Below are positions 2,362 to 18,262 of a stretch of 20,311 nt of DNA, piece after piece. The DNA is from Escherichia coli (GTDB lineage: Bacteria; Pseudomonadota; Gammaproteobacteria; Enterobacterales; Enterobacteriaceae), in assembly GCF_003334335.1 (NCBI RefSeq), contig NZ_QOWQ01000053.1; one strand, 5' to 3'. Numbering within the stretch: the stretch's first letter is position 1; every line of letters begins with the position of its first letter. The position numbers were made by a program, and so were the translations under genes. A model generated the notes under the pieces. It made no database searches. It had not been told where the DNA came from and worked only from the letters and a program-made list of their open reading frames with translations.

Positions 2362-5300
2362 ATGGACAAGGAATTACCGTGGCTGGCGGATAACGCCCAA
2401 CTGGAACTGAAATATAAAAAAGGCAAAACACCACTCAGTCATCGCAAATGGCCGGGCGAACCGGTGCCTGTTATCACTGAAAGCATCATTCAGACACTGG
2501 GTGATAAATTGCTACAAAAAGCTGAGAAGAAAAAAAACATTGTCTGGCGTTATGAAAATTTTTCACTGGAGTGGCAGTCCGCCATCACGCAGGCCATCAA
2601 CTTGATCGGCGAACACAAACCCTCAATCCCGGCCCGGACAATGGCGGCGCTAGTCTGTATCGCGCAAAATGACAGCCAACAGTTGCTCGACGAAATCGTC
2701 CAACAAGAGGGACTGGAATATGCGACTGAGGTGGTGATTGCACGCCAGTTTATTACACGATGTTATGAGAGTGATCCTCTGCTAGTGACATTGCAGTATC
2801 AGGACGAGGATTATGGCTATGGTTATCGCTCAGAAACCTATAACGAATTCGATCTCCGACTGCGTAAGCATCTCTCTCTGGCAGAGGAAAGCAGCTGGCA
2901 GCGTTGCGCCGACAAACTCATTGCCGCACTGCCAGGAATACCCAAAATTCGCCGTCCTTTTATTGCACTACTCCTCCCGGAAAAACCTGAAATAGCCAAT
3001 GAACTCGCCAGTCTTGAAAGCTCCCGGTCAAGTCTCCATTCAAAGGAGTGGTTAAAGGTCATTGCTACTGATAATACGGCGGTAAAAAAACTCGAACGAT
3101 ACTGGGGCCTGGACGTATTTAGCGATCGCGAAGCCAGCTACATGTCACAAGAAAACCGCTTCGGCTACGCGGCCTGCGCCTCCCTTTTGCGCGAACAAGG
3201 ACTGGCAGCCGTTCCGCGCCTGGCAATGTATGCCCATAAAGAAGATTGCGGCAGTCTGCTGGTACAAATTAACCATCCGCAAGTCATCCGCACCTTGCTA
3301 CTGGTGGCTGATAAAAACAAACCCAGCCTGCAACGTGTGGCTAAATACAGTAAAAACTTCCCCCACGCGACGCTCGCCGCACTGGCAGAACTGCTGGCGT
3401 TAAAAGAACCACCAGCCCGCCCAGGTTATCCAATCATCGAAGACAAAAAGCTGCCTGCACAGCAAAAAGCACGCGATGAATACTGGCGTACGCTGTTACA
3501 AACGCTGATGGCATCGCAGCCACAACTGGCAGCAGAAGTGATGCCGTGGTTAAGTACTCAAGCCAGGGCAGTGCTGAATAGTTATTTATCGGCACCGCCA
3601 AAACCGGTTATTGATAGCACCGATAACAGCAGTCTGCCTGAAATGCTCGTTTCACCACCGTGGCGTAGTAAGAAAAAAATGACAGCTCCACGTCTTGATT
3701 TGGCACCGCTCGAATTAACTCCGCAAATTTACTGGCAACCAGGCGAACAAGAGAGGCTTGCCGCCACTGAATCTGCCCGTTATTTCAGCACGGAATCTCT
3801 TGCGGAACGCATGGAACAAAAAAGTGGACGAGTTGTATTACAGGAACTGGGTTTTGGGGATGATGTATGGCTGTTTCTGAATTATATACTCCCCGGAAAA
3901 CTGGATGCTGCACGCAATTCACTCATTGTTCAGTGGCATTACTACCAGGGGCGGGTTGAAGAGATCCTGAATGGCTGGAACTCCCCGCAAGCACAATTAG
4001 CAGAACAGGCGCTCCGCAGCGGTCACATAGAAGCGTTAATTAACATATGGGAAAATGACAACTTCTCACGTTATCGTCCGGAAAAGAGTGTCTGGAACCT
4101 GTATTTATTGGCACAGTTGCCGCGTGAGATGGCTTTGACCTTCTGGCTGCGTATCATTGAGAAAAAGCATCTGTTCGCGGGTGAGGACTATTTTCTCAGT
4201 ATCCTCGGATTGGATGCGCTACCAGGTCTGCTGTTGGCTTTTTCACATCGTCCAAAAGAAACATTTCCGTTAATTTTAAATTTTGGCGCAACAGAACTGG
4301 CGCTGCCTGTTGCCCGCGTCTGGCGACGTTTCGCGGCGCAGCGTGATCTGGCTCGCCAGTGGATTTTACAATGGCCGGAACATACGGCTAGTGCACTTAT
4401 CCCTCTTGTCTTTACCAAACCCAGCGATAATAGCGAAGCCGCATTACTTGCCCTGCGTTTACTGTACGAACAGGGACATGGCGAATTGCTACAAACCGTG
4501 GCAAACCGCTGGCAGCGTACAGATGTATGGTCTGCCCTGGAGCAGTTGCTTAAACAGGGTCCAATGGACATTTACCCGGCACGCATTCCAAAAGCCCCTG
4601 ATTTCTGGCATCCGGCAATGTGGTCCAGGCCTCGACTTATCACTAATAATCAGCCTGTTACCGGTGACGCTCTGGAAATTATCGGCGAAATGCTGCGCTT
4701 TACCCAGGGGGGACGTTTTTATAGCGGGCTGGAACAACTGAAAACGTTCTGCCAGCCACAAACGCTGGCAGCTTTTGCCTGGGATCTCTTCACTGCGTGG
4801 CAACAAGCTGGTGCCCCCGCAAAAGACAACTGGGCATTTCTGGCGTTAAGTCTCTTTGGTGACGAAAGCACGGCACGGGATCTGACGACACAGATCCTCG
4901 CCTGGCCACAAGAAGGCAAATCTGCCCGTGCTGTCAGCGGCCTGAACATCCTTACCCTGATGAATAATGATATGGCGCTGATACAGCTGCATCATATATC
5001 GCAACGGGCTAAATCCCGCCCCTTACGTGATAACGCGGCGGAATTTCTTCAGGTGGTCGCAGAAAATCGCGGGCTAAGCCAGGAAGAGCTAGCGGACAGA
5101 TTAGTCCCAACCCTGGGCCTTGATGATCCGCAGGCGTTGAGTTTTGATTTTGGTCCCCGGCAGTTTACCGTTCGCTTCGATGAAAACCTCAACCCGGTTA
5201 TCTTTGATCAGCAAAACGTTCGCCAGAAAAGCGTTCCCCGGTTGCGCGCCGATGACGATCAACTGAAAGCGCCCGAGGCACTGGCCCGACTAAAAGGGCT

Positions 5301-5985: not shown

Positions 5986-6046
5986 AAACACAGCGGGCAG
6001 TGATGCAACTGCCCGTTATCAACACGACTTACCAGCGGGGAAAGCG

Positions 6047-6364
6047 ATGATCGTGCAAAAAGAGCTGGTTGCTATTTACGATTATGAGGTCCCTGTACCT
6101 GAAAATCCGTTTTCCTTCAGACTTGAGATCAATAAATGCTCTGAATTATTTACAGGTTCCGTCTATCGACTGGAGCGATTCCGGCTACGTCCAACATTTC
6201 ATCAACGTGATCGAGAAGATGCTGACCCGCTAATAAATGATGCGTTGATTTATATAAGAGATGAGTGTATTGATGAGCGGAAATTACGAGGTGAATCACC
6301 TGAAACTGTAATAGCAATTTTTAATCGTGAACTACAGAATATATTCAACCAAGAAATAGAATAA
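6047..6364 (+). CDS. yehK: Small protein YehK (105 aa), function unknown
   Basis: ATG at 6047 preceded by GGGGA 6 nt upstream. 105-codon ORF that is visibly more AT-rich than its flanking genes. Followed by an intrinsic terminator. Confidence 0.7.
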   Translation: MIVQKELVAIYDYEVPVPENPFSFRLEINKCSELFTGSVYRLERFRLRPTFHQRDREDADPLINDALIYIRDECIDERKLRGESPETVIAIFNRELQNIFNQEIE

Positions 6365-6533
6365 TATACTCTAAATAATTCAAATTGGTCCGATCCGGCG
6401 CAACGTCCCAATGGCCTGGATTATAAATCTCATTATCTTAATTGCAACGGGGTCCAGCCGTGGTTATAATTCGTTCGTTGGAACACGATGTTGCACAGGC
6501 TGCGGTGTTGGGCCTGAAAATAGTAAATAAAAG

Positions 6534-6559
6534 AACCTGCCTCACCAGCAGGTTTTTTT
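6534..6559 (+). terminator. Rho-independent terminator after yehK
   Basis: Stem AACCTGC (6534-6540), loop CTCACCA, stem GCAGGTT (6548-6554), then a T-run (TTTTTTTATTT). An A-rich tract (AAATAAAAG) lies upstream, so it could act in both directions. Confidence 0.7.
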
Positions 6560-6670
6560 ATTTACTGTGATCTGCTTTCCAGATATTTTCCGCTCAAACA
6601 ACTAATGCGCCAAACATTTATTGCGCGTAAAATATCGTTTATTTCATTAATACATTTCAGGGATGAATAT

Positions 6671-7759
6671 ATGTCACCGCAGAATAATCATCTGCAGCGT
6701 CCGCCTGCTGCTGTGTTATACGCCGATGAACTGGCAAAATTAAAACAAAATGATAACGCACCTTGCCCGCCCGGTTGGCAGTTAAGTTTGCCTGCGGCCC
6801 GTGCTTTTATCCTTGGCGATAGCGCGCAAAATATTAGCCGTAAAGTGGTGATTAGTCCCTCCGCTGTCGAACGCATGTTAGTCACTCTTGCCACCGGGCG
6901 CGGTTTGATGTTGGTGGGGGAACCTGGCACCGCAAAATCTCTCCTGTCTGAATTACTGGCAACCGCTATTAGCGGCGATGCCGGGTTAACCATCCAGGGC
7001 GGCGCATCTACTACCGAAGATCAAATCAAGTACGGCTGGAACTACGCCCTGCTTATCAATCATGGTCCATCAACGGAAGCGCTGGTCCCTGCCCCGCTTT
7101 ACCAGGGAATGCGCGACGGCAAAATCGTCCGTTTTGAAGAGATAACGCGTACACCGCTGGAAGTGCAAGACTGTCTGTTAGGTATGCTTTCTGACAGGGT
7201 GATGACGGTGCCGGAACTCACTGGTGAAGCCAGTCAGCTCTATGCGCGAGAAGGCTTTAATATTATTGCCACTGCCAATACCCGCGATCGCGGCGTCAAT
7301 GAAATGAGTGCTGCGCTAAAGCGTCGCTTCGATTTTGAAACTGTCTTTCCGATTATGGATTTCGCCCAGGAGCTGGAGCTTGTCGCCAGTGCTTCGGCGC
7401 GTTTGCTGGCCCATAGCGGTATTCCGCATAAAGTGCCTGACGCGGTACTGGAGTTACTGGTCCGCACCTTCCGCGATCTGCGTGCCAACGGCGAAAAGAA
7501 AACGTCAATGGATACACTAACAGCGATTATGTCCACCGCTGAAGCCGTGAACGTGGCCCACGCCGTAGGCGTCCGCGCCTGGTTTTTAGCGAATCGCGCA
7601 GGTGAGCCAGCCGACCTGGTGGACTGCATTGCCGGAACCATCGTCAAAGATAACGAAGAAGATCGCGCTCGTCTGCGCCGTTACTTCGAACAACGAGTCG
7701 CCACACATAAAGAAGCTCACTGGCAGGCTTATTATCAAGCCCGCCACCGCCTGCCGTGA
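6671..7759 (+). CDS. yehL: MoxR-type AAA+ ATPase YehL (362 aa)
   Basis: Walker A GEPGTAKS and a Walker B-like hhhhFEE (IVRFEEITR) are present. ATG at 6671 preceded by AGGGA. The ORF-track start at 6605 has no RBS and would add 22 residues. Confidence 0.85.
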   Translation: MSPQNNHLQRPPAAVLYADELAKLKQNDNAPCPPGWQLSLPAARAFILGDSAQNISRKVVISPSAVERMLVTLATGRGLMLVGEPGTAKSLLSELLATAISGDAGLTIQGGASTTEDQIKYGWNYALLINHGPSTEALVPAPLYQGMRDGKIVRFEEITRTPLEVQDCLLGMLSDRVMTVPELTGEASQLYAREGFNIIATANTRDRGVNEMSAALKRRFDFETVFPIMDFAQELELVASASARLLAHSGIPHKVPDAVLELLVRTFRDLRANGEKKTSMDTLTAIMSTAEAVNVAHAVGVRAWFLANRAGEPADLVDCIAGTIVKDNEEDRARLRRYFEQRVATHKEAHWQAYYQARHRLP

Positions 7760-7769
7760 GGAAAGATGC

Positions 7770-10049
7770 ATGAGCGAGCCGTTAATTGTCGGCATCCGGC
7801 ATCATAGTCCGGCCTGCGCCCGGCTGGTGAAATCGTTAATCGAAAGCCAGCGGCCACGATACGTATTGATTGAAGGCCCGGCTGATTTTAATGACCGGGT
7901 AGACGAACTGTTTTTAGCCCACCAGCTTCCGGTAGCTATTTACAGTTATTGCCAGTATCAGGACGGTGCAGCCCCCGGGCGTGGTGCCTGGACGCCATTT
8001 GCTGAATTTTCGCCGGAGTGGCAGGCGCTACAAGCCGCACGTCGTATTCAGGCACAAACTTACTTCATCGATTTGCCTTGCTGGGCGCAGAGTGAAGAAG
8101 TGGACGATTCGCCTGATACGCAAGAGGAAAGCCAGGCCTTGCTGCTGCGTGCCACCTGCATGGATAACAGCGACACCCTGTGGGATCACTTGTTCGAAGA
8201 TGAAAGCCAGCAAACTGCATTACCCTCTGCACTGGCGCACTATTTTGCCCAACTGCGGGGCGACTCCCCCGGAGATGCTCTCAATCGTCTGCGCGAAGCC
8301 TTTATGGCCCGCTGGATTGGATGGGCGATGCAGCAAAATAATGGCGACGTGTTAGTTGTCTGCGGTGGCTGGCACGCTCCGGTACTGGCAAAAATGTGGC
8401 GCGAATGCCCGCAGGAAATTAACACGCCAGAATTGCCGTCGCTGGCAGATGCCGTTACAGGTTGTTATCTCACCCCCTACAGTGAAAAGCGCCTTGATGT
8501 GCTGGCAGGATACCTTTCCGGAATGCCTGCCCCGGTCTGGCAAAACTGGTGCTGGCAGTGGGGCTTACAGCAGGCGGGAGAACAACTGCTAAAAACGGTT
8601 CTCACCCGTTTGCGCCAGCACAAGTTGCCTGCTTCGACCGCGGATATGGCTGCCGCTCATCTGCATGCGATGGCACTGGCACAGTTGCGCGGTCATACAC
8701 TACCGTTACGCACTGACTGGCTGGATGCCATAGCAGGATCGCTGATTAAAGAAGCCCTGAATGCGCCGTTGCCGTGGAGCTATCGCGGCGTTATTCATCC
8801 CGACACCGATCCGATTCTGCTAACGTTGATAGACACATTAGCGGGTGACGGATTCGGTAAACTTGCCCCTTCTACGCCACAACCTCCTCTGCCAAAAGAT
8901 GTCACCTGCGAACTGGAACGTACCGCAATCTCCCTTCCGGCGGAGCTTACCTTAAATCGCTTTAACCCCAATGGACTAGCGCAAAGTCAGGTGTTACATC
9001 GGCTGGCAATACTGGAGATCCCAGGGATTGTGCGCCAGCAGGGAAGCACACTGACACTTGCAGGCAACGGTGAAGAACACTGGAAATTAACCCGCCCGCT
9101 TAGCCAGCATGCGGCATTGATTGAGGCCGCCTGCTTTGGTGCCACACTCCAGGAAGCCGCACGCCATAAATTAGAAGCCGATATGCTGGACGCGGGTGGA
9201 ATCGGCAGTATCACCACATGTCTTAGCCAGGCGGCGTTAGCGGGTCTGGCGTCCTTCAGTCAACAATTACTGGAGCAACTCACATTATTAATCGCCCAGG
9301 AAAATCAATTTGCCGAAATGGGCCAGGCGCTGGAAGTGCTATATGCCTTATGGCGGCTGGATGAAATTAGCGGTATGCAAGGCGCGCAGATATTACAAAC
9401 GACGTTATGCGCGGCTATCGATCGCACGCTGTGGCTGTGTGAATCTAACGGCAGACCGGATGAAAAGGAGTTTCACGCTCACCTGCATAGCTGGCAAGCG
9501 CTTTGCCATATTCTGCGCGATCTACATAGCGGCGTTAATTTATCCGGCGTTTCGCTTTCTGCGGCGGTAGCCTTACTGGAGCGACGCAGTCAGGCGATTC
9601 ATGCCCCGGCGCTGGATCGCGGCGCGGTTCTTGGCGCACTAATGCGTCTGGAACATCCCAACGCCAGTGCCGAAGCGGCGCTGACGATGCTGGCGCAGTT
9701 ATCCCCGGCACAATCCGGCGAGGCGCTGCACGGTTTGCTGGCATTAGCCCGTCATCAACTGGCCTGTCAGCCGGCATTTATCGCCGGTTTCAGCAGTCAT
9801 TTAAATCAACTAAGTGATGCCGATTTTACCAATGCCCTGCCCGATTTACGCGCGGCAATGGCCTGGCTACCGCCACGAGAACGCGGGACGCTGGCGCATC
9901 AGGTGCTTGAGCATTATCAACTGGCGCAACTTCCCGTTTCGGCACTGCAAATGCCGTTGCATTGTCCACCGCAAGCCATTGCACATCATCAACAACTCGA
10001 ACAGCAGGCACTGGCATCGCTGCAACACTGGGGAGTTTTCCATGTCTGA
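7770..10049 (+). CDS. yehM: YehM, large protein (759 aa) of unknown function
   Basis: ATG at 7770 is 10 nt after the yehL stop, with GAGGA immediately upstream. The ORF-track start at 7602 would overlap yehL by 158 nt. The stop overlaps the yehP start (ATGTCTGA). Confidence 0.8.
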   Translation: MSEPLIVGIRHHSPACARLVKSLIESQRPRYVLIEGPADFNDRVDELFLAHQLPVAIYSYCQYQDGAAPGRGAWTPFAEFSPEWQALQAARRIQAQTYFIDLPCWAQSEEVDDSPDTQEESQALLLRATCMDNSDTLWDHLFEDESQQTALPSALAHYFAQLRGDSPGDALNRLREAFMARWIGWAMQQNNGDVLVVCGGWHAPVLAKMWRECPQEINTPELPSLADAVTGCYLTPYSEKRLDVLAGYLSGMPAPVWQNWCWQWGLQQAGEQLLKTVLTRLRQHKLPASTADMAAAHLHAMALAQLRGHTLPLRTDWLDAIAGSLIKEALNAPLPWSYRGVIHPDTDPILLTLIDTLAGDGFGKLAPSTPQPPLPKDVTCELERTAISLPAELTLNRFNPNGLAQSQVLHRLAILEIPGIVRQQGSTLTLAGNGEEHWKLTRPLSQHAALIEAACFGATLQEAARHKLEADMLDAGGIGSITTCLSQAALAGLASFSQQLLEQLTLLIAQENQFAEMGQALEVLYALWRLDEISGMQGAQILQTTLCAAIDRTLWLCESNGRPDEKEFHAHLHSWQALCHILRDLHSGVNLSGVSLSAAVALLERRSQAIHAPALDRGAVLGALMRLEHPNASAEAALTMLAQLSPAQSGEALHGLLALARHQLACQPAFIAGFSSHLNQLSDADFTNALPDLRAAMAWLPPRERGTLAHQVLEHYQLAQLPVSALQMPLHCPPQAIAHHQQLEQQALASLQHWGVFHV

Positions 10050-11178
10050 ACTGAACGATCTTCTGACCACCCGTGAGCTACAACGCTGGCGATTAATTCT
10101 TGGCGAAGCGGCAGAAACGACGCTTTGTGGGCTGGATGACAACGCCCGGCAGATAGACCACGCGCTGGAGTGGCTGTATGGGCGCGATCCTGAACGGCTC
10201 CAGCGTGGTGAACGCTCCGGTGGATTAGGTGGCTCAAATCTCACCACCCCTGAGTGGATCAACAGTATTCACACGCTGTTTCCGCAACAGGTGATTGAGC
10301 GGCTGGAAAGCGATGCCGTACTGCGCTACGGCATTGAAGATGTGGTGACAAATCTCGACGTGCTGGAACGTATGCAGCCTTCCGAAAGCCTGCTACGCGC
10401 CGTTTTGCACACCAAACATCTGATGAATCCCGAAGTACTGGCTGCCGCCCGCCAGATAGTGCGCCAGGTTGTTGAAGAAATTATGGCGCGACTGGCAAAG
10501 GAAGTTCGCCAGGCTTTTTCTGGTGTCCGCGATCGCCGTCGCCGTTCATTTATTCCACTGGCGCGAAACTTTGATTTCAAAAGTACTCTGCGCGCCAACC
10601 TGCAACACTGGCACCCGCAACACGGCAAGTTGTATATCGAATCCCCCCGCTTTAACAGCCGCATTAAACGCCAAAGCGAACAATGGCAACTGGTCTTACT
10701 GGTTGATCAAAGCGGATCGATGGTCAATTCGGTGATCCACTCTGCGGTGATGGCGGCCTGTTTGTGGCAGTTACCCGGCATTCGTACCCATCTGGTGGCG
10801 TTTGACACAAGCGTCGTTGATCTCACGGCAGACGTTGCCGATCCGGTAGAGTTATTAATGAAAGTACAGTTGGGCGGCGGGACCAATATCGCCAGTGCCG
10901 TGGAGTATGGTCGGCAACTTATTGAACAACCAGCGAAAAGCGTCATTATCCTCGTGAGCGATTTTTACGAAGGGGGTTCATCATCATTACTGACGCATCA
11001 GGTGAAAAAGTGTGTCCAGAGCGGCATCAAAGTGCTGGGACTGGCAGCGCTCGATAGCACCGCAACACCTTGCTATGACCGCGATACGGCCCAGGCGCTG
11101 GTTAATGTCGGCGCACAAATAGCCGCCATGACGCCGGGCGAGCTGGCATCATGGCTTGCGGAGAATCTTCAGTCATGA
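10042..11178 (+). CDS. yehP: von Willebrand factor A (vWA) domain protein YehP (378 aa)
   Basis: MIDAS-like DxSxS motif (LVDQSGSM) followed by a G-G-T-N element, typical of vWA folds. Start ATG at 10042 overlaps the yehM stop by 8 nt. Confidence 0.85.
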   Translation: MSELNDLLTTRELQRWRLILGEAAETTLCGLDDNARQIDHALEWLYGRDPERLQRGERSGGLGGSNLTTPEWINSIHTLFPQQVIERLESDAVLRYGIEDVVTNLDVLERMQPSESLLRAVLHTKHLMNPEVLAAARQIVRQVVEEIMARLAKEVRQAFSGVRDRRRRSFIPLARNFDFKSTLRANLQHWHPQHGKLYIESPRFNSRIKRQSEQWQLVLLVDQSGSMVNSVIHSAVMAACLWQLPGIRTHLVAFDTSVVDLTADVADPVELLMKVQLGGGTNIASAVEYGRQLIEQPAKSVIILVSDFYEGGSSSLLTHQVKKCVQSGIKVLGLAALDSTATPCYDRDTAQALVNVGAQIAAMTPGELASWLAENLQS

Positions 11179-13178
11179 ATTCACTACGTCCGGAATTATT
11201 AGAACTGACACCACAGGCCCTGACGGCGTTAAGCAATGCCGGTTTTGTTAAGCGCAGTCTTAAGGAACTGGAAAATGGCAACGTCCCGGAGATCAGCCAT
11301 GAGAACGACGCTTTAATCGCCACCTTCAGTGACGGTGTCCGTACCCAGCTGGCGAACGGCCAGGCACTGAAAGAGGCTCAGTGCAGTTGCGGGGCCAACG
11401 GTATGTGCCGTCATCGCGTGATGCTGGTGTTAAGTTATCAACGACTTTGTGCCACCACTCAGTCTACGGAAAAAGAAGAAGAGTGGGATCCGGCAATCTG
11501 GCTGGAAGAACTGGCTACCCTTCCCGATGCTACCCGCAAACGCGCACAGGCACTGGTCGCTAAAGGCATCACCATTGAGTTGTTCTGTACGCCGGGCGAA
11601 ATTCCCTCTGCCCGCTTACCGATGAGCGATGTGCGTTTTTATTCCCGTAGCAGCATTCGTTTCGCCCGTTGTGATTGTATTGAAGGCACACTTTGCGAAC
11701 ATGTCGTACTGGCAGTACAGGCCTTTGTCCAGGCAAAAGCGCAGCAAGCGGAATTGACTCATTTAATCTGGCAGATGCGCAGCGAACACGTCACATCATC
11801 TGACGATCTGTTTGCCAGCGAAGAAGGCAAAACGTGTCGTCAATATGTTCAGCAACTAAGCCAGGCATTATGGCTGGGCGGCATCAGCCAGCCGCTTATT
11901 CACTACGAGGCCGCTTTCAGCCGCGCGCAGCAAGCAGCGGAACGCTGCAACTGGCGATGGGTGAGTGAATCGCTACGGCAACTGCGCGCCAGCGTTGATG
12001 CCTTCCACGCCCGCGCCAGCCACTATCATGCCGGAGAATGCTTACGTCAGCTTGCGGCATTAAACAGTCGATTAAATTGCGCACAAGAGATGGCGCGGCG
12101 CGACAGTGTTGGTGAAGTTCCTCCTGTGCCGTGGCGCACGGTCGTTGGCTCTGGCATTGCCGGAGAAGCAAAGCTTGATCATCTGCGGCTGGTGTCTTTA
12201 GGTATGCGTTGCTGGCAGGATATTGAGCATTATGGTTTACGCATCTGGTTTACCGATCCCGACACCGGCAGTATTTTGCACCTTTCGCGCAGTTGGCCGC
12301 GAAGTGAACAGGAAAACTCACCGGCAGCTACGCGTCGGCTGTTTAGTTTTCAGGCTGGCGCACTGGCGGGTGGGCAAATTGTTTCACAAGCAGCAAAACG
12401 CAGTGCCGATGGCGAGCTGCTGTTAGCTACCCGCAACCGCTTAAGCAGCGTTGTGCCGCTGTCGCCTGATGCCTGGCAAATGTTGAGCGCGCCGTTACGC
12501 CAGTCGGGCATTGTGGCTTTGCGGGAATATTTACGCCAGCGTCCCCCCTCCTGCATACGGCCTCTTAATCAGGTCGATAACTTATTTATTCTGCCGGTCG
12601 CTGAGTGTATTTCGCTCGGTTGGGATAGCAGCCGCCAGACGCTGGATGCGCAGGTAATCAGCGGCGAAGGTGAAGATAATCTGCTGACGTTATCACTGCC
12701 AGCCTCAGCCAGCGCGCCTTATGCCATTGAACGCATGGCGGCGCTTTTGCAACAAACAGACGACCCCGTGTGTCTGGTTTCTGGCTTTGTCAGTTTTGTT
12801 GATGGGCAATTGACACTGGAACCACAGGTAATGATGACAAAGACTCGTGCCTGGGCGCTGGACGCAGAAACTGCGCCTGTGGTGGCATCACTACCTTCTG
12901 TCAGCGTTCTGCCTGTGCCGTCTACTGCTCATCAGTTGCTGATGCGCTGCCAGGCATTACTTATTCAACTGCTCCATAACGGCTGGCGCTATCAGGAACA
13001 GAGTGCTATTGGTCAGGCAGAGTTGCTGGCGAATGACCTCACCGCGGTGGGTTTTTATCGGCTGGCACATGTATTGGGACAATTTCGTAATACAGAAAGC
13101 GAGGCACGGGTAGAAGCAATGAATAACTGCGTTTTGCTGTGCGAACAATTATTCCCCATGCTTCAGCAACAAGGATGA
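11175..13178 (+). CDS. yehQ: SWIM zinc-finger protein YehQ (667 aa as called here)
   Basis: Two CxC...CxH signatures (CSCGANGMCRHRVM and CDCIEGTLCEHVV) characteristic of SWIM zinc fingers. ATG at 11175 overlaps the yehP stop (ATGA). GGAG lies 11 nt upstream. The alternative in-frame ATG at 11151 is less well placed. Confidence 0.8.
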   Translation: MNSLRPELLELTPQALTALSNAGFVKRSLKELENGNVPEISHENDALIATFSDGVRTQLANGQALKEAQCSCGANGMCRHRVMLVLSYQRLCATTQSTEKEEEWDPAIWLEELATLPDATRKRAQALVAKGITIELFCTPGEIPSARLPMSDVRFYSRSSIRFARCDCIEGTLCEHVVLAVQAFVQAKAQQAELTHLIWQMRSEHVTSSDDLFASEEGKTCRQYVQQLSQALWLGGISQPLIHYEAAFSRAQQAAERCNWRWVSESLRQLRASVDAFHARASHYHAGECLRQLAALNSRLNCAQEMARRDSVGEVPPVPWRTVVGSGIAGEAKLDHLRLVSLGMRCWQDIEHYGLRIWFTDPDTGSILHLSRSWPRSEQENSPAATRRLFSFQAGALAGGQIVSQAAKRSADGELLLATRNRLSSVVPLSPDAWQMLSAPLRQSGIVALREYLRQRPPSCIRPLNQVDNLFILPVAECISLGWDSSRQTLDAQVISGEGEDNLLTLSLPASASAPYAIERMAALLQQTDDPVCLVSGFVSFVDGQLTLEPQVMMTKTRAWALDAETAPVVASLPSVSVLPVPSTAHQLLMRCQALLIQLLHNGWRYQEQSAIGQAELLANDLTAVGFYRLAHVLGQFRNTESEARVEAMNNCVLLCEQLFPMLQQQG

Positions 13179-13302
13179 AATAGTGCTTTTTACTAAGAGT
13201 TCTACTCCAGTTCCGGACTGCTCACACCACGGTATTAGGCATATCCTATATAGCCCCTGGTGAGAGTCACCAGTTCCTTGATTAAATAAAATGGAGTTTT
13301 AC

Positions 13303-13764
13303 ATGAAGGCTTTCAATAAGCTGTTTTCCCTTGTTGTTGCATCTGTTCTGGTTTTCTCTCTTGCTGGCTGCGGTGACAAAGAAGAATCGAAGAAATTCAG
13401 CGCCAATCTGAACGGCACTGAAATTGCCATTACCTATGTCTACAAAGGTGACAAGGTGCTTAAGCAATCTTCAGAAACCAAAATTCAATTTGCCTCTATT
13501 GGTGCAACCACCAAAGAAGACGCTGCCAAGACACTTGAGCCGTTAAGCGCCAAATACAAAAACATCGCGGGTGTTGAAGAAAAATTAACCTATACCGATA
13601 CCTACGCGCAGGAAAACGTGACTATCGATATGGAAAAAGTGGATTTTAAAGCCCTGCAGGGTATTTCAGGAATCAACGTTTCTGCTGAAGATGCCAAAAA
13701 AGGTATCACTATGGCGCAAATGGAACTGGTGATGAAAGCCGCTGGTTTTAAAGAAGTGAAATAA
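13303..13764 (+). CDS. yehR: Lipoprotein YehR (153 aa)
   Basis: Signal peptide with lipobox LAGC (MKAFNKLFSLVVASVLVFSLAGCGDK). GGAG 6 nt upstream of the ATG at 13303. The ORF-track start at 13291 overlaps the RBS. Confidence 0.85.
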   Translation: MKAFNKLFSLVVASVLVFSLAGCGDKEESKKFSANLNGTEIAITYVYKGDKVLKQSSETKIQFASIGATTKEDAAKTLEPLSAKYKNIAGVEEKLTYTDTYAQENVTIDMEKVDFKALQGISGINVSAEDAKKGITMAQMELVMKAAGFKEVK

Positions 13765-13770
13765 TCTGTC

Positions 13771-13795
13771 GGCGGCCATGTTTCGCATGGCCGCC
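13771..13795. terminator. Hairpin between convergent yehR and yehS, likely a shared terminator
   Basis: GGCGGCCATG, loop TTTCG, CATGGCCGCC: a perfect 10-bp stem between the two stop codons (13764 and 13805). The flanking U-tract is weak. Confidence 0.55.
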
Positions 13796-13804
13796 ATACC
13801 CGTC

Positions 13805-14275
13805 TTAGCTTTTCTTCACATGCTGGCGCGCTGCCAGTCCACGCAGAAAATAACGTAAAAATTGATCGCCGCATTCGCGGAAGTTTTTATGATCCGGTGC
13901 ACGCATCATCGCCGTAATTTCCGGCATCGAAACGCGGAACTGCTGTTCGGTGAGGATCGCCAGAATGTCATCGGTTTTCAGCGAAAACGCGATGCGTAAT
14001 TTTTTTAGCACGATGTTGTTATTAATGCGACGTTCCGGCTCCAGTGCCGGAGCAGACTCATCCTTGCCGCGTTTTTCATAAATCAGGCCATTGAGGAATG
14101 ACGACAAAACAATGTCCGGACAACGCTGAAAACCCTCTTCGTCTTCTTTACGTAGCCAGACGGCGATCTGTTCCGCGGTGGCTTCGACATTACCCAGCGC
14201 CAGAATACGCACCAGGTCATTATTATTGGCTTTCAAAATGTAGCGCACGCTGCGCAGAATATCGTTACTTAGCAT
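13805..14275 (-). CDS. yehS: YehS (156 aa), DUF1456-type protein of unknown function
   Basis: Minus-strand ORF. Preferred start is the ATG whose reverse complement is at 14273-14275, preceded by GAAGG (protein begins MLSNDILRS). The longer ORF-track start lacks an RBS. Confidence 0.75.
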   Translation of the reverse strand: MLSNDILRSVRYILKANNNDLVRILALGNVEATAEQIAVWLRKEDEEGFQRCPDIVLSSFLNGLIYEKRGKDESAPALEPERRINNNIVLKKLRIAFSLKTDDILAILTEQQFRVSMPEITAMMRAPDHKNFRECGDQFLRYFLRGLAARQHVKKS

Positions 14276-14321
14276 GAGGCCTTCAGGTGTTGATGAGGCA
14301 AAAAGCCATTTTAGCAGTCTT

Positions 14322-15041
14322 TTACAGGCCAATCGCCTCTTTTAAGCTTTTCAGATAACGGCGGCTGACCGGCACGGTTAAGCCATTACGCAAAATCAAC
14401 TCGGCCTGGCCGTTATCTTCCAGACGAATCTCCTGTAAATGCGCGAGGTTAACCAGATACTGACGATGGCAGCGCAGTAGTGGTGTACGACTTTCCAGGG
14501 TACGTAATGTCAATTCGGTAAAGCCCTCTTTCCCTTCGTGGCTGGTAACGTAGACACCGCTCATCCGACTGCTGACAAATGCCACATCTTTCATTTGCAG
14601 CAAATAAATCCGACTATGCCCAGTACAAGGGATAAATTTCAGCGCCTGTTGATTTTCTGGTAACAGCGAAACATCCTGCTTGCTGCGTTCCTGCCGCAAA
14701 CGCGCCAGCGTTTTCTCCAGTCGCGCTTCATCAATTGGCTTCAGCAGATAATCAAAGGCGTGTTCTTCAAAGGCTTTAATGGCGTATTCGTCAAACGCGG
14801 TGAGAAAAACAATATACGGACGATGTTCCGGGTCGAGCATCCCCACCATTTCCAGACCACTGATGCGCGGCATCTGGATATCGAGAAACAGCACATCCGG
14901 GCGCAGTTTATGCACCGCGCCGATCCCTTCCACGGCGTTTGAACACTCACCAACGATTTCAATATCGCTCTGCTCCTGCAAAAATACGCGCAGGTTCTCC
15001 CGTGCTAACGGTTCATCATCGACAATTAAGACTTTAATCAT
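14322..15041 (-). CDS. btsR: LytTR-family response regulator BtsR (YehT), 239 aa
   Basis: N-terminal receiver domain ([17 protein letters not shown] with the conserved acidic pair, plus a later phospho-acceptor Asp context) and a C-terminal LytTR-type DNA-binding region. Its start ATG overlaps the btsS stop (ATGA), indicating translational coupling. Confidence 0.85.
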
Positions 15042-16723
15042 GCCTCGTCCCTCCATGGTAGTCGTAACGTTATTCGGGTGTAACTATCAGGCTCACAGGC
15101 GACGCTTATCCCATAGTCATCGCCAAACCGTTCACGTAAACGCTTATCCACCAGATTCATCCCCAGCCCACTGGCATTGGTTACCGGTTGATACAAACCG
15201 GCATTGTCTTCGATCTCCAGCATCAAATGTTGCCCCTCACGTCGGGCGCTGATTGCCACTCGCCCTGTATCCAGCAGTTGTGATGTCCCATGTTTAATGG
15301 CGTTTTCCACTATCGGTTGCAGGGTAAACGCGGGCAATTGCTGCTGGGATAATTCTTGCGGAATAGCAATGTTGACCTGCAACCGCGACTGGAAGCGCGC
15401 CTTTTCAATTTGCAGATAAGCGTTCACATGTTCAATTTCGTCGGCGAGAGTAACAAACTCCGAAGGCCGCTTTAAGTTTTTGCGGAAAAAAGTGGAAAGA
15501 TACTGCACCAGCTGGCTGGCCTGTTCGCTGTCGCGACGGATCACCGCTTTAATGGTGTTAAGCGCATTAAACAAAAAATGGGGGTTCACCTGGGCGTGAA
15601 GCAGTTTGATCTCTGACTGGGTGAGCATCGCTTTTTGCCGCTCATATTGCCCGGCGAGGATCTGCGCCGAAAGCAGTTGCGCAATCCCCTCGCCCAGCGT
15701 GCGGTTGATTGAACTGAATAAACGGTTTTTGGCTTCATACAATTTGATGGTGCCCATCACCCGCTGATTTTCACCACGCAACGGAATTACCAGCGTCGAC
15801 CCCAGTTTGCATTGCGGATGCAAAGAGCAACGATAAGGTACTTCGTTGCCATCAGCGTAGACCACTTCACCGGTTTCAATCGCTTTTAAGGTGTAAGTCG
15901 AAGATATCGGTTTGCCGGGTAAATGGTGGTCGTCACCAATTCCGGTAAAGGCCAGCAATTTCTCTCGATCGGTAATCGCGACTGCACCAATATCCAGCTC
16001 CTGATACAGCACCTGTGCCACTTTCATGCTGTTCACTTCGTTAAACCCCTGGCGCAAAATGCCTTCCGTCGAGGCAGCCACTTTCAGCGCAGTGGCAGAA
16101 AAAGCCGAAGTGTATTTTTCAAACATCGCGCGTTTATCGAGCAATATACGCATAAACAGCGCCGCGCCGACGGTATTGGTGACCATCATTGGCGCAGCAA
16201 TATTACTCACCAGACGCACCGCATCTTCATAAGGTCGGGCGATCGCCAGGATGATCAACATTTGCACCATTTCAGCGACGAACGTGACGGCACCGGCGGT
16301 AATGGGGTTAAAGACTTTATCAGTGCGCCCGCGACGGATCAGGATGCTGTGTACCAGGCCGCCGAGCAATCCTTCAACGATGGTCGAGATCATGCAACTT
16401 AGCGCGGTCATGCCCCCCATCGAATATCGATGTAACCCGCCGGTCAGGCCAACCAGCCCACCGACGACCGGACCGCCGAGTAAGCCGCCCATTACCGCGC
16501 CTATCGCACGGGTATTGGCAATAGAATCGTCAATGTGCAACCCAAACCAGGTGCCCATGATGCAGAAGATGGAAAAGACGATGTAGCAGAGAAATTTATG
16601 CGGCAGACGAACCGTGACCTGCATTAACGGTATGAATAATGGCGTTTTACTCATTAACCATGCAATGACTAAAAAAACGCACATCTGCTGAAGCAGCAGC
16701 AACACCAGATTAAAATCGTACAT
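15038..16723 (-). CDS. btsS: LytS-type sensor histidine kinase BtsS (YehU), 561 aa
   Basis: N-terminal multi-pass hydrophobic region with glycine-rich helices, a central GAF-like region, and a C-terminal His-kinase/HATPase region ([14 protein letters not shown], then G-rich ATP-lid motifs). Start chosen at MYDFNL (16723); the GTG 5 codons upstream is an alternative. Confidence 0.85.
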
Positions 16724-16944
16724 ACCCGCAAACCACACTTCCCTTTAAAACGCGTAACATACATTGCCTGCGTTTAACTTTCTTTGAACTCTTGCAGAAA
16801 AATGAGAATTCGTGAGTACGATCACTCAAAATCGCCTGGCAAAAATAAAATCACCCTATAAATGCACAAAAAACGGGCAAAACTACCTGGTTCGCAAAAC
16901 TGCGTCTAAAGTTAAACCGGGACCTCGCGAGCAAGGGTGAGACG
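16724..16944. promoter_or_regulatory. Divergent intergenic control region between btsS (minus) and mlrA (plus)
   Basis: 221-bp AT-rich non-coding gap between two divergently oriented starts. AGGGTGAG RBS precedes the mlrA ATG. No specific promoter hexamers are asserted. Confidence 0.5.
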
Positions 16945-17013
16945 ATGGCGCTTTACACAATTGGTGAAGTGGCGTTGCTTTGTGATATTAACCCTGTCAC
17001 GTTACGCGCGTGA
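16945..17013 (+). pseudogene. mlrA: 5' remnant of mlrA (yehV): first 22 codons, then a premature stop created at an insertion junction
   Basis: Encodes MALYTIGEVALLCDINPVTLRA, the start of a MerR-type HTH, then TGA at 17011-17013. Where a MerR recognition helix should continue (W-x-RRYGLL), the downstream sequence is unrelated. Confidence 0.8.
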
Positions 17014-17177
17014 CGCAACATTTTTAAAAATCGACGAAGATCGTCCAGGAGCGCCGTTTTTCAAGGGTTGGATAGATGATTCGTTTACCATGTCGACGAA
17101 CTTCGACGAATTTCGCCGATAAAAAGTGTCCCATACATGCCCCATTGATGCCCCATAAACAATATCAGGAATTGACA

Positions 17178-17222
17178 CTGGTTATCCATACAGACAAAAA
17201 TAACACCTGTACATAACCACAG
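17178..17222 (+). promoter_or_regulatory. Two LexA-box-like palindromes (SOS operators) upstream of the dinI homolog, with an adjacent consensus -35
   Basis: CTGG-N8-ACAG at 17178-17193 and a perfect CTGT-N8-ACAG at 17207-17222. TTGACA at 17172-17177 abuts the first box. AGGAGG RBS at 17227-17232. Confidence 0.6.
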
Positions 17223-17237
17223 TTACAGGAGGGTGTT

Positions 17238-17486
17238 ATGCGTGTTGAGATCTGTATCGCTAAAGAAAAAATCAGCAAAATGCCAAAAGGTTCTGTTTCT
17301 GCCCTGCAGCAAGAAATGCTTCGACGTGTCAGTAAACGTTATGACGATGTGGACGTGATTGTCAGAGCCGCCAACAATGACAGTCTCACCATTTTAAGAG
17401 CTGTAGATAAAGAATCCGCGCACGAATTTGTTCAGGAAACACTGCAGGAAGCCTGGGAAACCGCTGACGACTGGTTTATTCGGTAA
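17238..17486 (+). CDS. DinI-family protein (82 aa), prophage-encoded homolog of the SOS protein DinI
   Basis: [10 protein letters not shown]...[10 protein letters not shown]...[17 protein letters not shown] parallels E. coli DinI as I recall it (MRIEVTIAK...AANNLSVIG...QETWESADDWFVSE). Strong RBS and LexA-like boxes upstream. Confidence 0.8.
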
Positions 17487-17497
17487 ATCTTCTTTAC

Positions 17498-17526
17498 GGG
17501 GAGTTAACTTACTCCCCATTTTTTAT
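17498..17526. terminator. Rho-independent terminator after the dinI homolog (possibly bidirectional)
   Basis: GGGGAGT, loop TAACTT, ACTCCCC, followed by ATTTTTTATT. On the minus strand the same hairpin immediately follows the stop of the small ORF at 17523. Confidence 0.7.
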
Positions 17527-17654
17527 TGCATGATAATTGCAGCAACGGCACAGAGTGTCACCACACCACCCAGCCACACAAACAGCATGAAGCACATTGC
17601 TCCCGCTGTATAACGTTTTCTCCCGTACATACGGCATTTGTCTTTATTCATCAT
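17523..17654 (-). CDS. Candidate small tail-anchored membrane protein (43 aa)
   Basis: MMNKDKCRMYGRKRYTAGAMCFMLFVWLGGVVTLCAVAAIIMQ: basic N-terminus then a single ~23-residue hydrophobic segment. AGGGG lies a few nt upstream of the ATG. The stop is followed directly by the hairpin at 17498-17517. No homology is asserted. Confidence 0.3.
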   Translation of the reverse strand: MMNKDKCRMYGRKRYTAGAMCFMLFVWLGGVVTLCAVAAIIMQ

Positions 17655-17700
17655 CTGCCCCTGAATCACATGAAGACGCTGCAGGTCCGGTAACACTGAA

Positions 17701-18174
17701 TCACTCCGCACACGCAAGATGTTTCACGCTCACACCATACAGCCCGTTTTTCGCCATTCCCGTATACAGAAAGGTATTCACCGTCTTCGTGTGAATGCCC
17801 ATTTCACTGGCAAGGCGACAGGGTCTCGACTGGCGGTAGACGTAGCCAAACATCACCACCATCTCTGACATCGTCAGCGGACGGGCAACGCTGTTATACG
17901 TCCATACACCATTGCGTATGGCATCACTTATCTGCTCACCATCACGGAGTGATTCCGCACCCAGTTGCAGAAAATGCCGTCCCTGGAACATGCAGCGCAT
18001 CAGTCTGCCCAGCAACGTATCACAGATTATCAGCCAGGATTCGTCAAAGTCCGGGATATAACGGCGGTTCTCCGGCAGGAAAAACTCCCTCGCCAGTATC
18101 ACACTGTGTTCCTTCAGTAACGCCTGCAGACCATACTCCAGATAGCGATTCCTGGTAGCCAGAATCACCTTCAT
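17701..18174 (-). CDS. LuxR/GerE-type HTH transcriptional regulator (157 aa) with an atypical N-terminal domain
   Basis: C-terminal segment LTMSEMVVMF...RLASEMGIHTKTVNTFLYTGMAKNGL fits the LuxR-family HTH pattern (compare ...EIA..LGIS.KTV..H..NI..KLG). The N-terminus (MKVILATRN) is receiver-like but lacks the acidic pocket. Start chosen at the ATG with an AGGAAGG RBS. Confidence 0.6.
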   Translation of the reverse strand: MKVILATRNRYLEYGLQALLKEHSVILAREFFLPENRRYIPDFDESWLIICDTLLGRLMRCMFQGRHFLQLGAESLRDGEQISDAIRNGVWTYNSVARPLTMSEMVVMFGYVYRQSRPCRLASEMGIHTKTVNTFLYTGMAKNGLYGVSVKHLACAE

Positions 18175-18262
18175 CGCAGCACCTTCCTGTTTTTTATGCC
18201 CCATGAAAAACGGCAGACCAGAGTCCTGCGCCTGCCGTCATGCTTCATGTCACTGTCAGCAA

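Follow-up and report, generated by a model that had tools for sequence, protein, structure and literature searches.

The 20,311-nt stretch of Escherichia coli DNA analyzed here (the window) carries the attL of a lambda-like temperate phage integrated in mlrA, the gene for an activator of csgD (curli, biofilm). We put the probability of this reading, in which MlrA is lost in the lysogen and excision is reversible, at about 93%. A tyrosine integrase would have recombined the phage site-specifically into a 20-bp target covering codons 17 through 23 of mlrA, using an integration module (int, xis, both att arms, and the core) that would be that of the Stx1 prophage Sp15/VT1-Sakai/CP-933V on an otherwise different phage. 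All that the native mlrA promoter would still drive is a stub of 22 codons, closed by a TGA that the junction made. For a full-length prophage, the other 221 codons would lie some 51 kb farther on, downstream of int, without a canonical start codon, helix 1, or half of the recognition helix. We infer that int, attR, and a complete prophage are present in this strain.

mlrA lies in its native setting, with yehI, yehK, yehL, yehM, yehP, yehQ, yehR, yehS, btsR, and btsS upstream (the btsS ORF ends at 16738, minus strand); no tRNA genes were found within the window. The features around the junction are as follows.

16739-16944, plus strand: btsS-mlrA intergenic region with the native mlrA promoter region and ribosome-binding site, wholly chromosomal (0 mismatches to PEC1009; K-12 annotation)
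16945-17013, plus strand: mlrA' 5' remnant, codons 1 through 22 and the junction TGA (BLAST, PEC1009 alignment, ORF list)
16993-17012: attachment-site core, attL copy, CCTGTCACGTTACGCGCGTG, the same sequence as the misc_recomb feature "attachment site of phage VT1-Sakai" that marks either end of that prophage
16995-17013: inverted repeat GTCACG-TTACGCG-CGTGAC in the core, with perfect 6-bp arms and a 7-bp spacer at 17001-17007 (sequence symmetry)
17013-17237: phage P' arm (repeat analysis on the reconstructed attP)

The ORF at 16945-17013 starts with ATG and runs for 22 codons (MALYTIGEVALLCDINPVTLRA) to a TGA stop; read by codon, it is ATG GCG CTT TAC ACA ATT GGT GAA GTG GCG TTG CTT TGT GAT ATT AAC CCT GTC ACG TTA CGC GCG TGA, with AAC at codon 16. 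BLAST aligns K-12 mlrA to 16945-17012 (68 nt) at 98.5% identity, with 22/22 amino acids the same. Several complete genomes match the chromosomal flank (6000-16990) at 100% identity, among them the near-isogenic PEC1009, which has an empty site and an uninterrupted mlrA of 243 codons. In a base-by-base alignment PEC1009 has 0 mismatches to 16301-17012, and the first mismatch falls at 17013. The TGA was therefore made by the junction, from the TG of mlrA codon 23 (TGG, Trp) and an A of the phage arm, and a point nonsense mutation is ruled out. Protein identity to MlrA stops after codon 22, DNA identity runs on through the first two bases of codon 23, and the recombination point is within the 20 to 21 bp common to phage and host (16992/16993-17012). 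In STEC2018-553, which has the same left junction, PGAP annotates the matching 66-nt fragment as an incomplete pseudogene; the VT1-Sakai record labels the equivalent mlrA 5' fragment yehV'.

The preliminary description had recognized this ORF as the start of mlrA, interrupted after codon 22 inside the MerR-type HTH, and had proposed that a foreign insertion with about 3.3 kb visible follows the stub. Both points are borne out by the 22/22 matching residues, by Pfam MerR_1 spanning residues 4-72, and by the lambdoid prophage end that occupies the DNA past 17012 (17013-20311, 3,299 bases). The crossover, which it suggested placing by alignment to an intact mlrA, is located by the end of the PEC1009 match at 17012 and divergence from 17013. 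It had also considered that the sequence after 17013 might be native mlrA with a point nonsense mutation, or that an intact copy might exist elsewhere: there is no similarity to mlrA past 17012, and BLAST with K-12 mlrA finds no other mlrA-like sequence in the window at the DNA or protein level.

Alignment of the four att sites shows that CCTGTCACGTTACGCGCGTG is common to attB, attL, attR, and the inferred attP. The core was derived from genuine attR sequences, those of STEC2018-553 and VT1-Sakai; the record ends of Escherichia phage PhiR5_1, to which the inserted DNA belongs most closely, do not reveal it alone because the depositor trimmed that record at the prophage boundaries. The attR of STEC2018-553 consists of CCCTTAATC (integrase and P arm), CCTGTCACGTTACGCGCGTG (core), and GCAGAGGCG (mlrA from codon 23), and that of VT1-Sakai likewise has the core followed by mlrA from codon 23 onward. 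With the AAC allele at mlrA codon 16 in this strain, core identity with the phage arm extends to 21 bp, from 16992. The 20-bp core is found a single time in the window and in none of 100 shuffles, even when 3 mismatches are allowed; an exact 41-mer across the junction is common to 12 fetched loci.

Lambda-type att sites combine core-type and arm-type integrase sites, which is the basis of the following comparison. The inverted repeat could provide core-type integrase binding sites around a 7-bp overlap (17001-17007), and strand exchange probably takes place within the TTACGCG between the repeats. The P' arm contains GTGTCCCAT (17126), ATGCCCCAT (17137 and 17148), and three copies of CGACGAA (17032, 17094, and 17104); a composite motif, AAAGTGTCCCAT-NN-ATGCCCCAT, is present in both phage arms, including the P arm beside int. 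By likeness to lambda-type att sites, these shared motifs could be arm-type integrase sites; as the whole P' arm is ~99% conserved relative to VT1-Sakai, that comparison singles out no candidate among them. An att-core hairpin with a T-run was considered as a terminator for the mlrA stub. The RNA fold is unexceptional (-9.8 kcal/mol, z = -1.56) and the T-run is offset, and we make no claim for it.

The inserted DNA is the end of a lambda-like phage. Positions 17013-20311 are the same as the end of PhiR5_1 (PV340545.1) at 3,299 of 3,300 positions (1 mismatch, ungapped); the match covers 100% of 17014-20311, and the PhiR5_1 record ends at most 2 bases from the junction. The lambda-like PhiR5_1 genome measures 50,981 bp; int and xis lie at the end opposite the junction match, and the gene order is int, xis; exo/bet/gam; cI/cro/cII; O/P; Q; lysis; Nu1/A terminase; lambda-type head and tail; J; lom; tail-fiber; adhesin; dinI. 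A literature search found no publication on PhiR5_1; that its name hints at an origin in the ECOR collection is a guess. Beside cI, outside the window, PhiR5_1 has a HipA-like toxin gene and a partner ("HipD"; locus L004, 7915-9488). The phage genes directly inside the junction encode a DinI-like protein, the ORF-60 and ORF-156 homologs, an Eib-like adhesin, and a tail-fiber assembly protein; the visible prophage ORFs are all intact.

17172-17222, plus strand: dinI promoter-like site TTGACA-18-AAAAAT (17172-17201) and two LexA-box-like sequences (from the sequence)
17238-17486, plus strand: prophage dinI-like gene, 82 aa (NCBIfam NF007893 DinI, E = 1.9e-18; 66.7 bits, below the equivalog cutoff of 111 bits)
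17498-17517: terminator-like hairpin 3' of the dinI-like gene
17523-17696, minus strand: homolog of ORF-60 of P-Eib prophages (67.8% identity to ORF-60A over 59 aa; hypothetical in PhiR5_1)
17701-18174, minus strand: ORF-156 homolog, 157 aa (94.2% identity to ORF-156A of P-EibA over 156 aa)
18263-19336, minus strand: Eib-like trimeric autotransporter adhesin, 357 aa, prophage cargo (Pfam YadA_anchor at residues 299-357, E = 9.8e-16)
20132-20311, minus strand: 3' end of a tail-fiber assembly gene (DUF4376), cut by the window end (PhiR5_1 annotation mapped onto the window)

One LexA-box-like sequence, CTGGTTATCCATACAG (17178-17193), overlaps the dinI promoter-like site and the other, CTGTACATAACCACAG (17207-17222), lies 3' of it. 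These sites correspond in position to the "putative promoter" and "putative SOS box" of VT1-Sakai, in whose record an SOS box is annotated only for the counterpart of CTGTACATAACCACAG. The gene that follows is annotated as DinI-like in both PhiR5_1 and STEC2018-553. The ORF-156 homolog has no NCBIfam family match; it accompanies eib-type genes in all records seen. At its C-terminus, the translated tail-fiber assembly gene shows no difference from the end of P-EibA ORF-191A.

Among complete genomes the best match is SW070917 (NZ_CM129862.1), at 99.6%. In its mlrA prophage (locus L005, 5553-6716 and 13980-46404) an ompC-like porin gene lies amid the tail genes, and a complete Mu-like prophage sits within the element. 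Another contig (GCA_022763025.1, 1-8607; L014) shares the attL junction and the block of dinI, ORF-156, and adhesin but connects them to a P22_portal/SU10_adaptor morphogenesis module in place of lambda-like tail genes; as read from the sequence, this arrangement shows modular exchange behind a constant att-proximal end. Because phages with the shared junction and cargo are mosaic, the unseen part of the prophage in this strain need not equal PhiR5_1, and it could be defective or, in principle, stx-bearing.

The attachment site and integration genes match those of the Stx1 prophage Sp15 of O157:H7 Sakai (VT1-Sakai, AP000400.1; CP-933V). In the VT1-Sakai record, exactly CCTGTCACGTTACGCGCGTG is marked as the attachment site at the two prophage ends, once in yehV' and once in 'yehV. 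The phage in the window occupies the identical 20-bp site and cuts the MlrA HTH at the same point; for at least 137 nt its attL has exactly the VT1-Sakai sequence, and only 3 positions of the 225-nt P' arm differ. In both, the first gene inside attL is dinI-like with an SOS box, and the sequences are ~86% identical from dinI onward. The PhiR5_1 integrase is 99.5% identical to that of VT1-Sakai and 100% identical to that of STEC2018-553, and its Xis is 100% identical to VT1-Sakai Xis. The identical att site, identical attL junction, and 99.5% integrase identity agree with the earlier statement that mlrA serves as an attachment site for lambdoid phages, including the Stx1 phage of O157:H7.

The resemblance does not extend to the phage as a whole: at the stringency of megablast, only 19.6 of the 51 kb of PhiR5_1 (~38%) aligns with VT1-Sakai, with conservation highest in the int-xis block (96%). 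Whereas VT1-Sakai has YkgJ-like and 933W-L0122-like ORFs near att, the phage here has ORF-60, ORF-156, and the Eib-like adhesin; PhiR5_1 is without stx1A/B, and the host is of a background other than O157:H7. Use of the Sp15-type integration module is not confined to Stx phages or to O157:H7. Since the module is here joined to apparently toxin-free Eib-like cargo on a commensal-type chromosome, an occupied mlrA is no proxy for stx1; some stx1-negative non-O157 strains also have mlrA occupied (PMC3874044).

The att-proximal cargo resembles that of the P-Eib prophages (P-EibA, C, D, and E; E. coli ECOR-9), which are lambdoid and carry immunoglobulin-binding eib genes. The order at the tail-fiber end is shared (lom, orf-401-like, orf-191 for tail-fiber assembly, eib-like, orf-156, orf-60), ORF-156 is 94% identical, and DNA identity is ~92% over parts of the block. 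Beyond orf-60, however, P-EibA has eaaA, where this phage has dinI and attL. The adhesin has the features of the Eib family, a YadA-type membrane anchor and a coiled-coil stalk homologous to Eib proteins: residues 213-357 (stalk and anchor) share 59.6% identity with EibA across 166 aligned positions, and the PDB matches are 2lme, the YadA anchor, and 2xzr, the EibD stalk (E = 7e-8). Unlike EibA (392 aa), the 357-aa protein has an unrelated N-terminal passenger (no similarity to EibA in the N-terminal two-thirds), with only the C-terminal stalk and anchor in common; immunoglobulin binding is putative. More than 23 contigs encode the exact 357-aa adhesin; in 8/8 examined, it lies next to the identical attL junction in mlrA. 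A prophage-borne Eib-like surface protein is thereby flagged in this strain.

To assess how often the site is occupied, we used a 300-nt probe centered on the K-12 site to count empty sites in 5,426 complete E. coli genomes. The site is intact in 4,944 of them, the sequence going on with GCAGAGGCG, and the attL-plus-dinI junction as in the window is present in 462 (~8.5%). Occupancy of the mlrA site is thus about 9% among complete genomes, and the occupants are almost always phages that have this integration module.

Intact MlrA comprises Pfam MerR_1 (residues 4-72, 63.5 bits), MerR (5-42, 45.2 bits), MlrA_helical (81-155), and MlrA_C (162-238). This domain set is not found in one ORF in the window, where residues 1-22 are followed by a stop. 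The distal 221 residues match MerR_1 at model positions 20-68 only (40.5 bits; 1-68 in the intact protein) and MerR marginally (16.5 bits); the break removes MerR_1 model positions 1-19, which cuts helix 1 and the initial half of the recognition helix off from the rest. At attR, int is on the same strand as 'mlrA and reads toward it, and there is no ATG, GTG, or TTG in frame between the upstream stop and 'mlrA. PGAP calls the attR-side 3' fragment a nonpseudo 228-aa "HTH-type transcriptional regulator MlrA" (WP_042101647.1) with an ATC start (L006, 11924-12610; NZ_CP075665.1, 306923-307609). This call is probably an annotation artifact, and it can hide the disruption in gene-presence surveys.

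Because mlrA is split into a stub and a distal part, the lysogen would be without functional MlrA, and MlrA-dependent activation of csgD (curli, cellulose, biofilm) should be impaired; because the core is exactly duplicated, excision by Int/Xis would rebuild an intact mlrA. In O157:H7, 53 of 55 isolates have a prophage in proximal mlrA and are without curli and biofilm, and mlrA in trans restores curli in some strains (PMC3874044). Studies of O157:H7 and non-O157 STEC also include strains that mlrA failed to complement, and truncated distal MlrA gave back some Congo-red binding. As summarized in PMC5931665 from Uhlich et al. (2013, Microbiology 159:1586; 2016, FEMS Microbiol Lett 363:fnw123), spontaneous and drug-induced excision rebuilds native mlrA in a small fraction of cells. 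The same summary has distal mlrA expressed by run-off transcription upon induction, with the DNA-binding region absent and DNA binding unlikely. By analogy with the O157:H7 and non-O157 STEC work, this strain should be impaired in curli and biofilm formation, and the phenotype is predicted to revert on prophage loss.

mlrA has been named among the cases of "regulated gene integrity" (PMC7192596). As in that class, also termed active lysogeny (comK-phi10403S in Listeria, sigK-skin in Bacillus, hlb-phiSa3 in S. aureus), a prophage inside a coding sequence inactivates the gene and precise excision restores it. In contrast to those switches, mlrA excision is described as rare and mostly tied to lytic induction, not as a programmed nonlytic switch (PMC5931665).

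Other explanations were weighed against integration of a temperate phage. That there is no insertion, the TGA being a point nonsense mutation in mlrA or the junction an assembly chimera, has practically no chance of being correct and was rejected: PEC1009 diverges at 17013, the sequence past 17012 has no similarity to mlrA, and the same junction is present in the 462 independently assembled complete genomes, in 8/8 further contigs, and in the curated VT1-Sakai record. An inserted Shiga-toxin-converting phage, like the O157:H7 Stx1 phages that use the mlrA site, would account for an attachment site and integration module the same as those of VT1-Sakai; STEC2018-553, which shares the junction, is a STEC isolate, and lambdoid phages are mosaic. 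We nevertheless regard it as very improbable, given that Stx1A and Stx1B of VT1-Sakai have no tblastn match below E = 0.1 in PhiR5_1 or the window, that the Q-to-S region of PhiR5_1 contains only small hypothetical ORFs and a 662-aa CP-933V-like ORF, and that the att-proximal cargo is unlike that of VT1-Sakai. The genomes 100% identical in the flank also speak against it; they are small (4.67-4.86 Mb), and their isolates, of wild-bird, human, and vegetable origin, bear no O157:H7 label. By sequence comparison, the prophage appears to be without Shiga toxin genes. The initial caution that toxin content could not be judged from 3.3 kb was right, and the closest full-length phage, PhiR5_1, has no stx homolog.

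A degraded remnant that has lost int, xis, or attR, leaving mlrA off permanently rather than reversibly, is unlikely. The visible part is the attL-proximal 3.3 kb only, and the closest contig of the window's lineage (1 mismatch in 11,903) likewise breaks off within the prophage. Rearrangements are seen in some related mlrA prophages, a nested Mu-like prophage in SW070917 and IS629 with a split J gene in VT1-Sakai, and truncated yehV phages occur in O157:H7 (Shaikh and Tarr 2003, as cited in PMC5931665). Against this, the prophage end is 1 base in 3,300 from PhiR5_1, whose deposition as a complete phage with E. coli C as host implies a recently active phage, and the visible ORFs are all intact. 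A more far-reaching proposal, which we consider quite improbable, is that the insertion rewires as well as knocks out, with read-through from the mlrA promoter into dinI, and that in a commensal-type background the module is consistently linked to the hitherto uncharacterized 357-aa Eib-like adhesin so that curli is traded for adhesin. The mlrA promoter is intact and on the same strand as the prophage dinI-like gene, 225 nt upstream, with only the weak att-core hairpin between. If the proposal held, stationary-phase (RpoS-dependent) host signaling would be coupled to a RecA-damping protein and lysogeny stabilized, and the lysogen could swap curli for a phage-borne surface adhesin.

Disruption of mlrA by an integrated temperate phage, the reading we prefer, has precedent: published work already covers the use of mlrA by lambdoid phages for attachment, the att core, the break in the HTH, the phenotype, and restoration by excision (PMC3874044, PMC5931665, PMC7192596). 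Added here are the exact junction, the core position, the Sp15/VT1-Sakai-type module, the PhiR5_1-like end with P-Eib-like cargo, the finding that the closest full-length relative has no stx, and the population frequencies.

Elsewhere in the window, the only Rfam match is an OrzO-P type I antitoxin sRNA at 6484-6559 (plus strand; RF02083, 101 bits) in the 306-bp yehK-yehL spacer. As this spacer contains no zor toxin ORF, OrzO-P looks like an orphan antitoxin; the yehK-yehL spacer of STEC2018-553 is 1,183 bp long and contains two ZorO/ZorP toxin ORFs.
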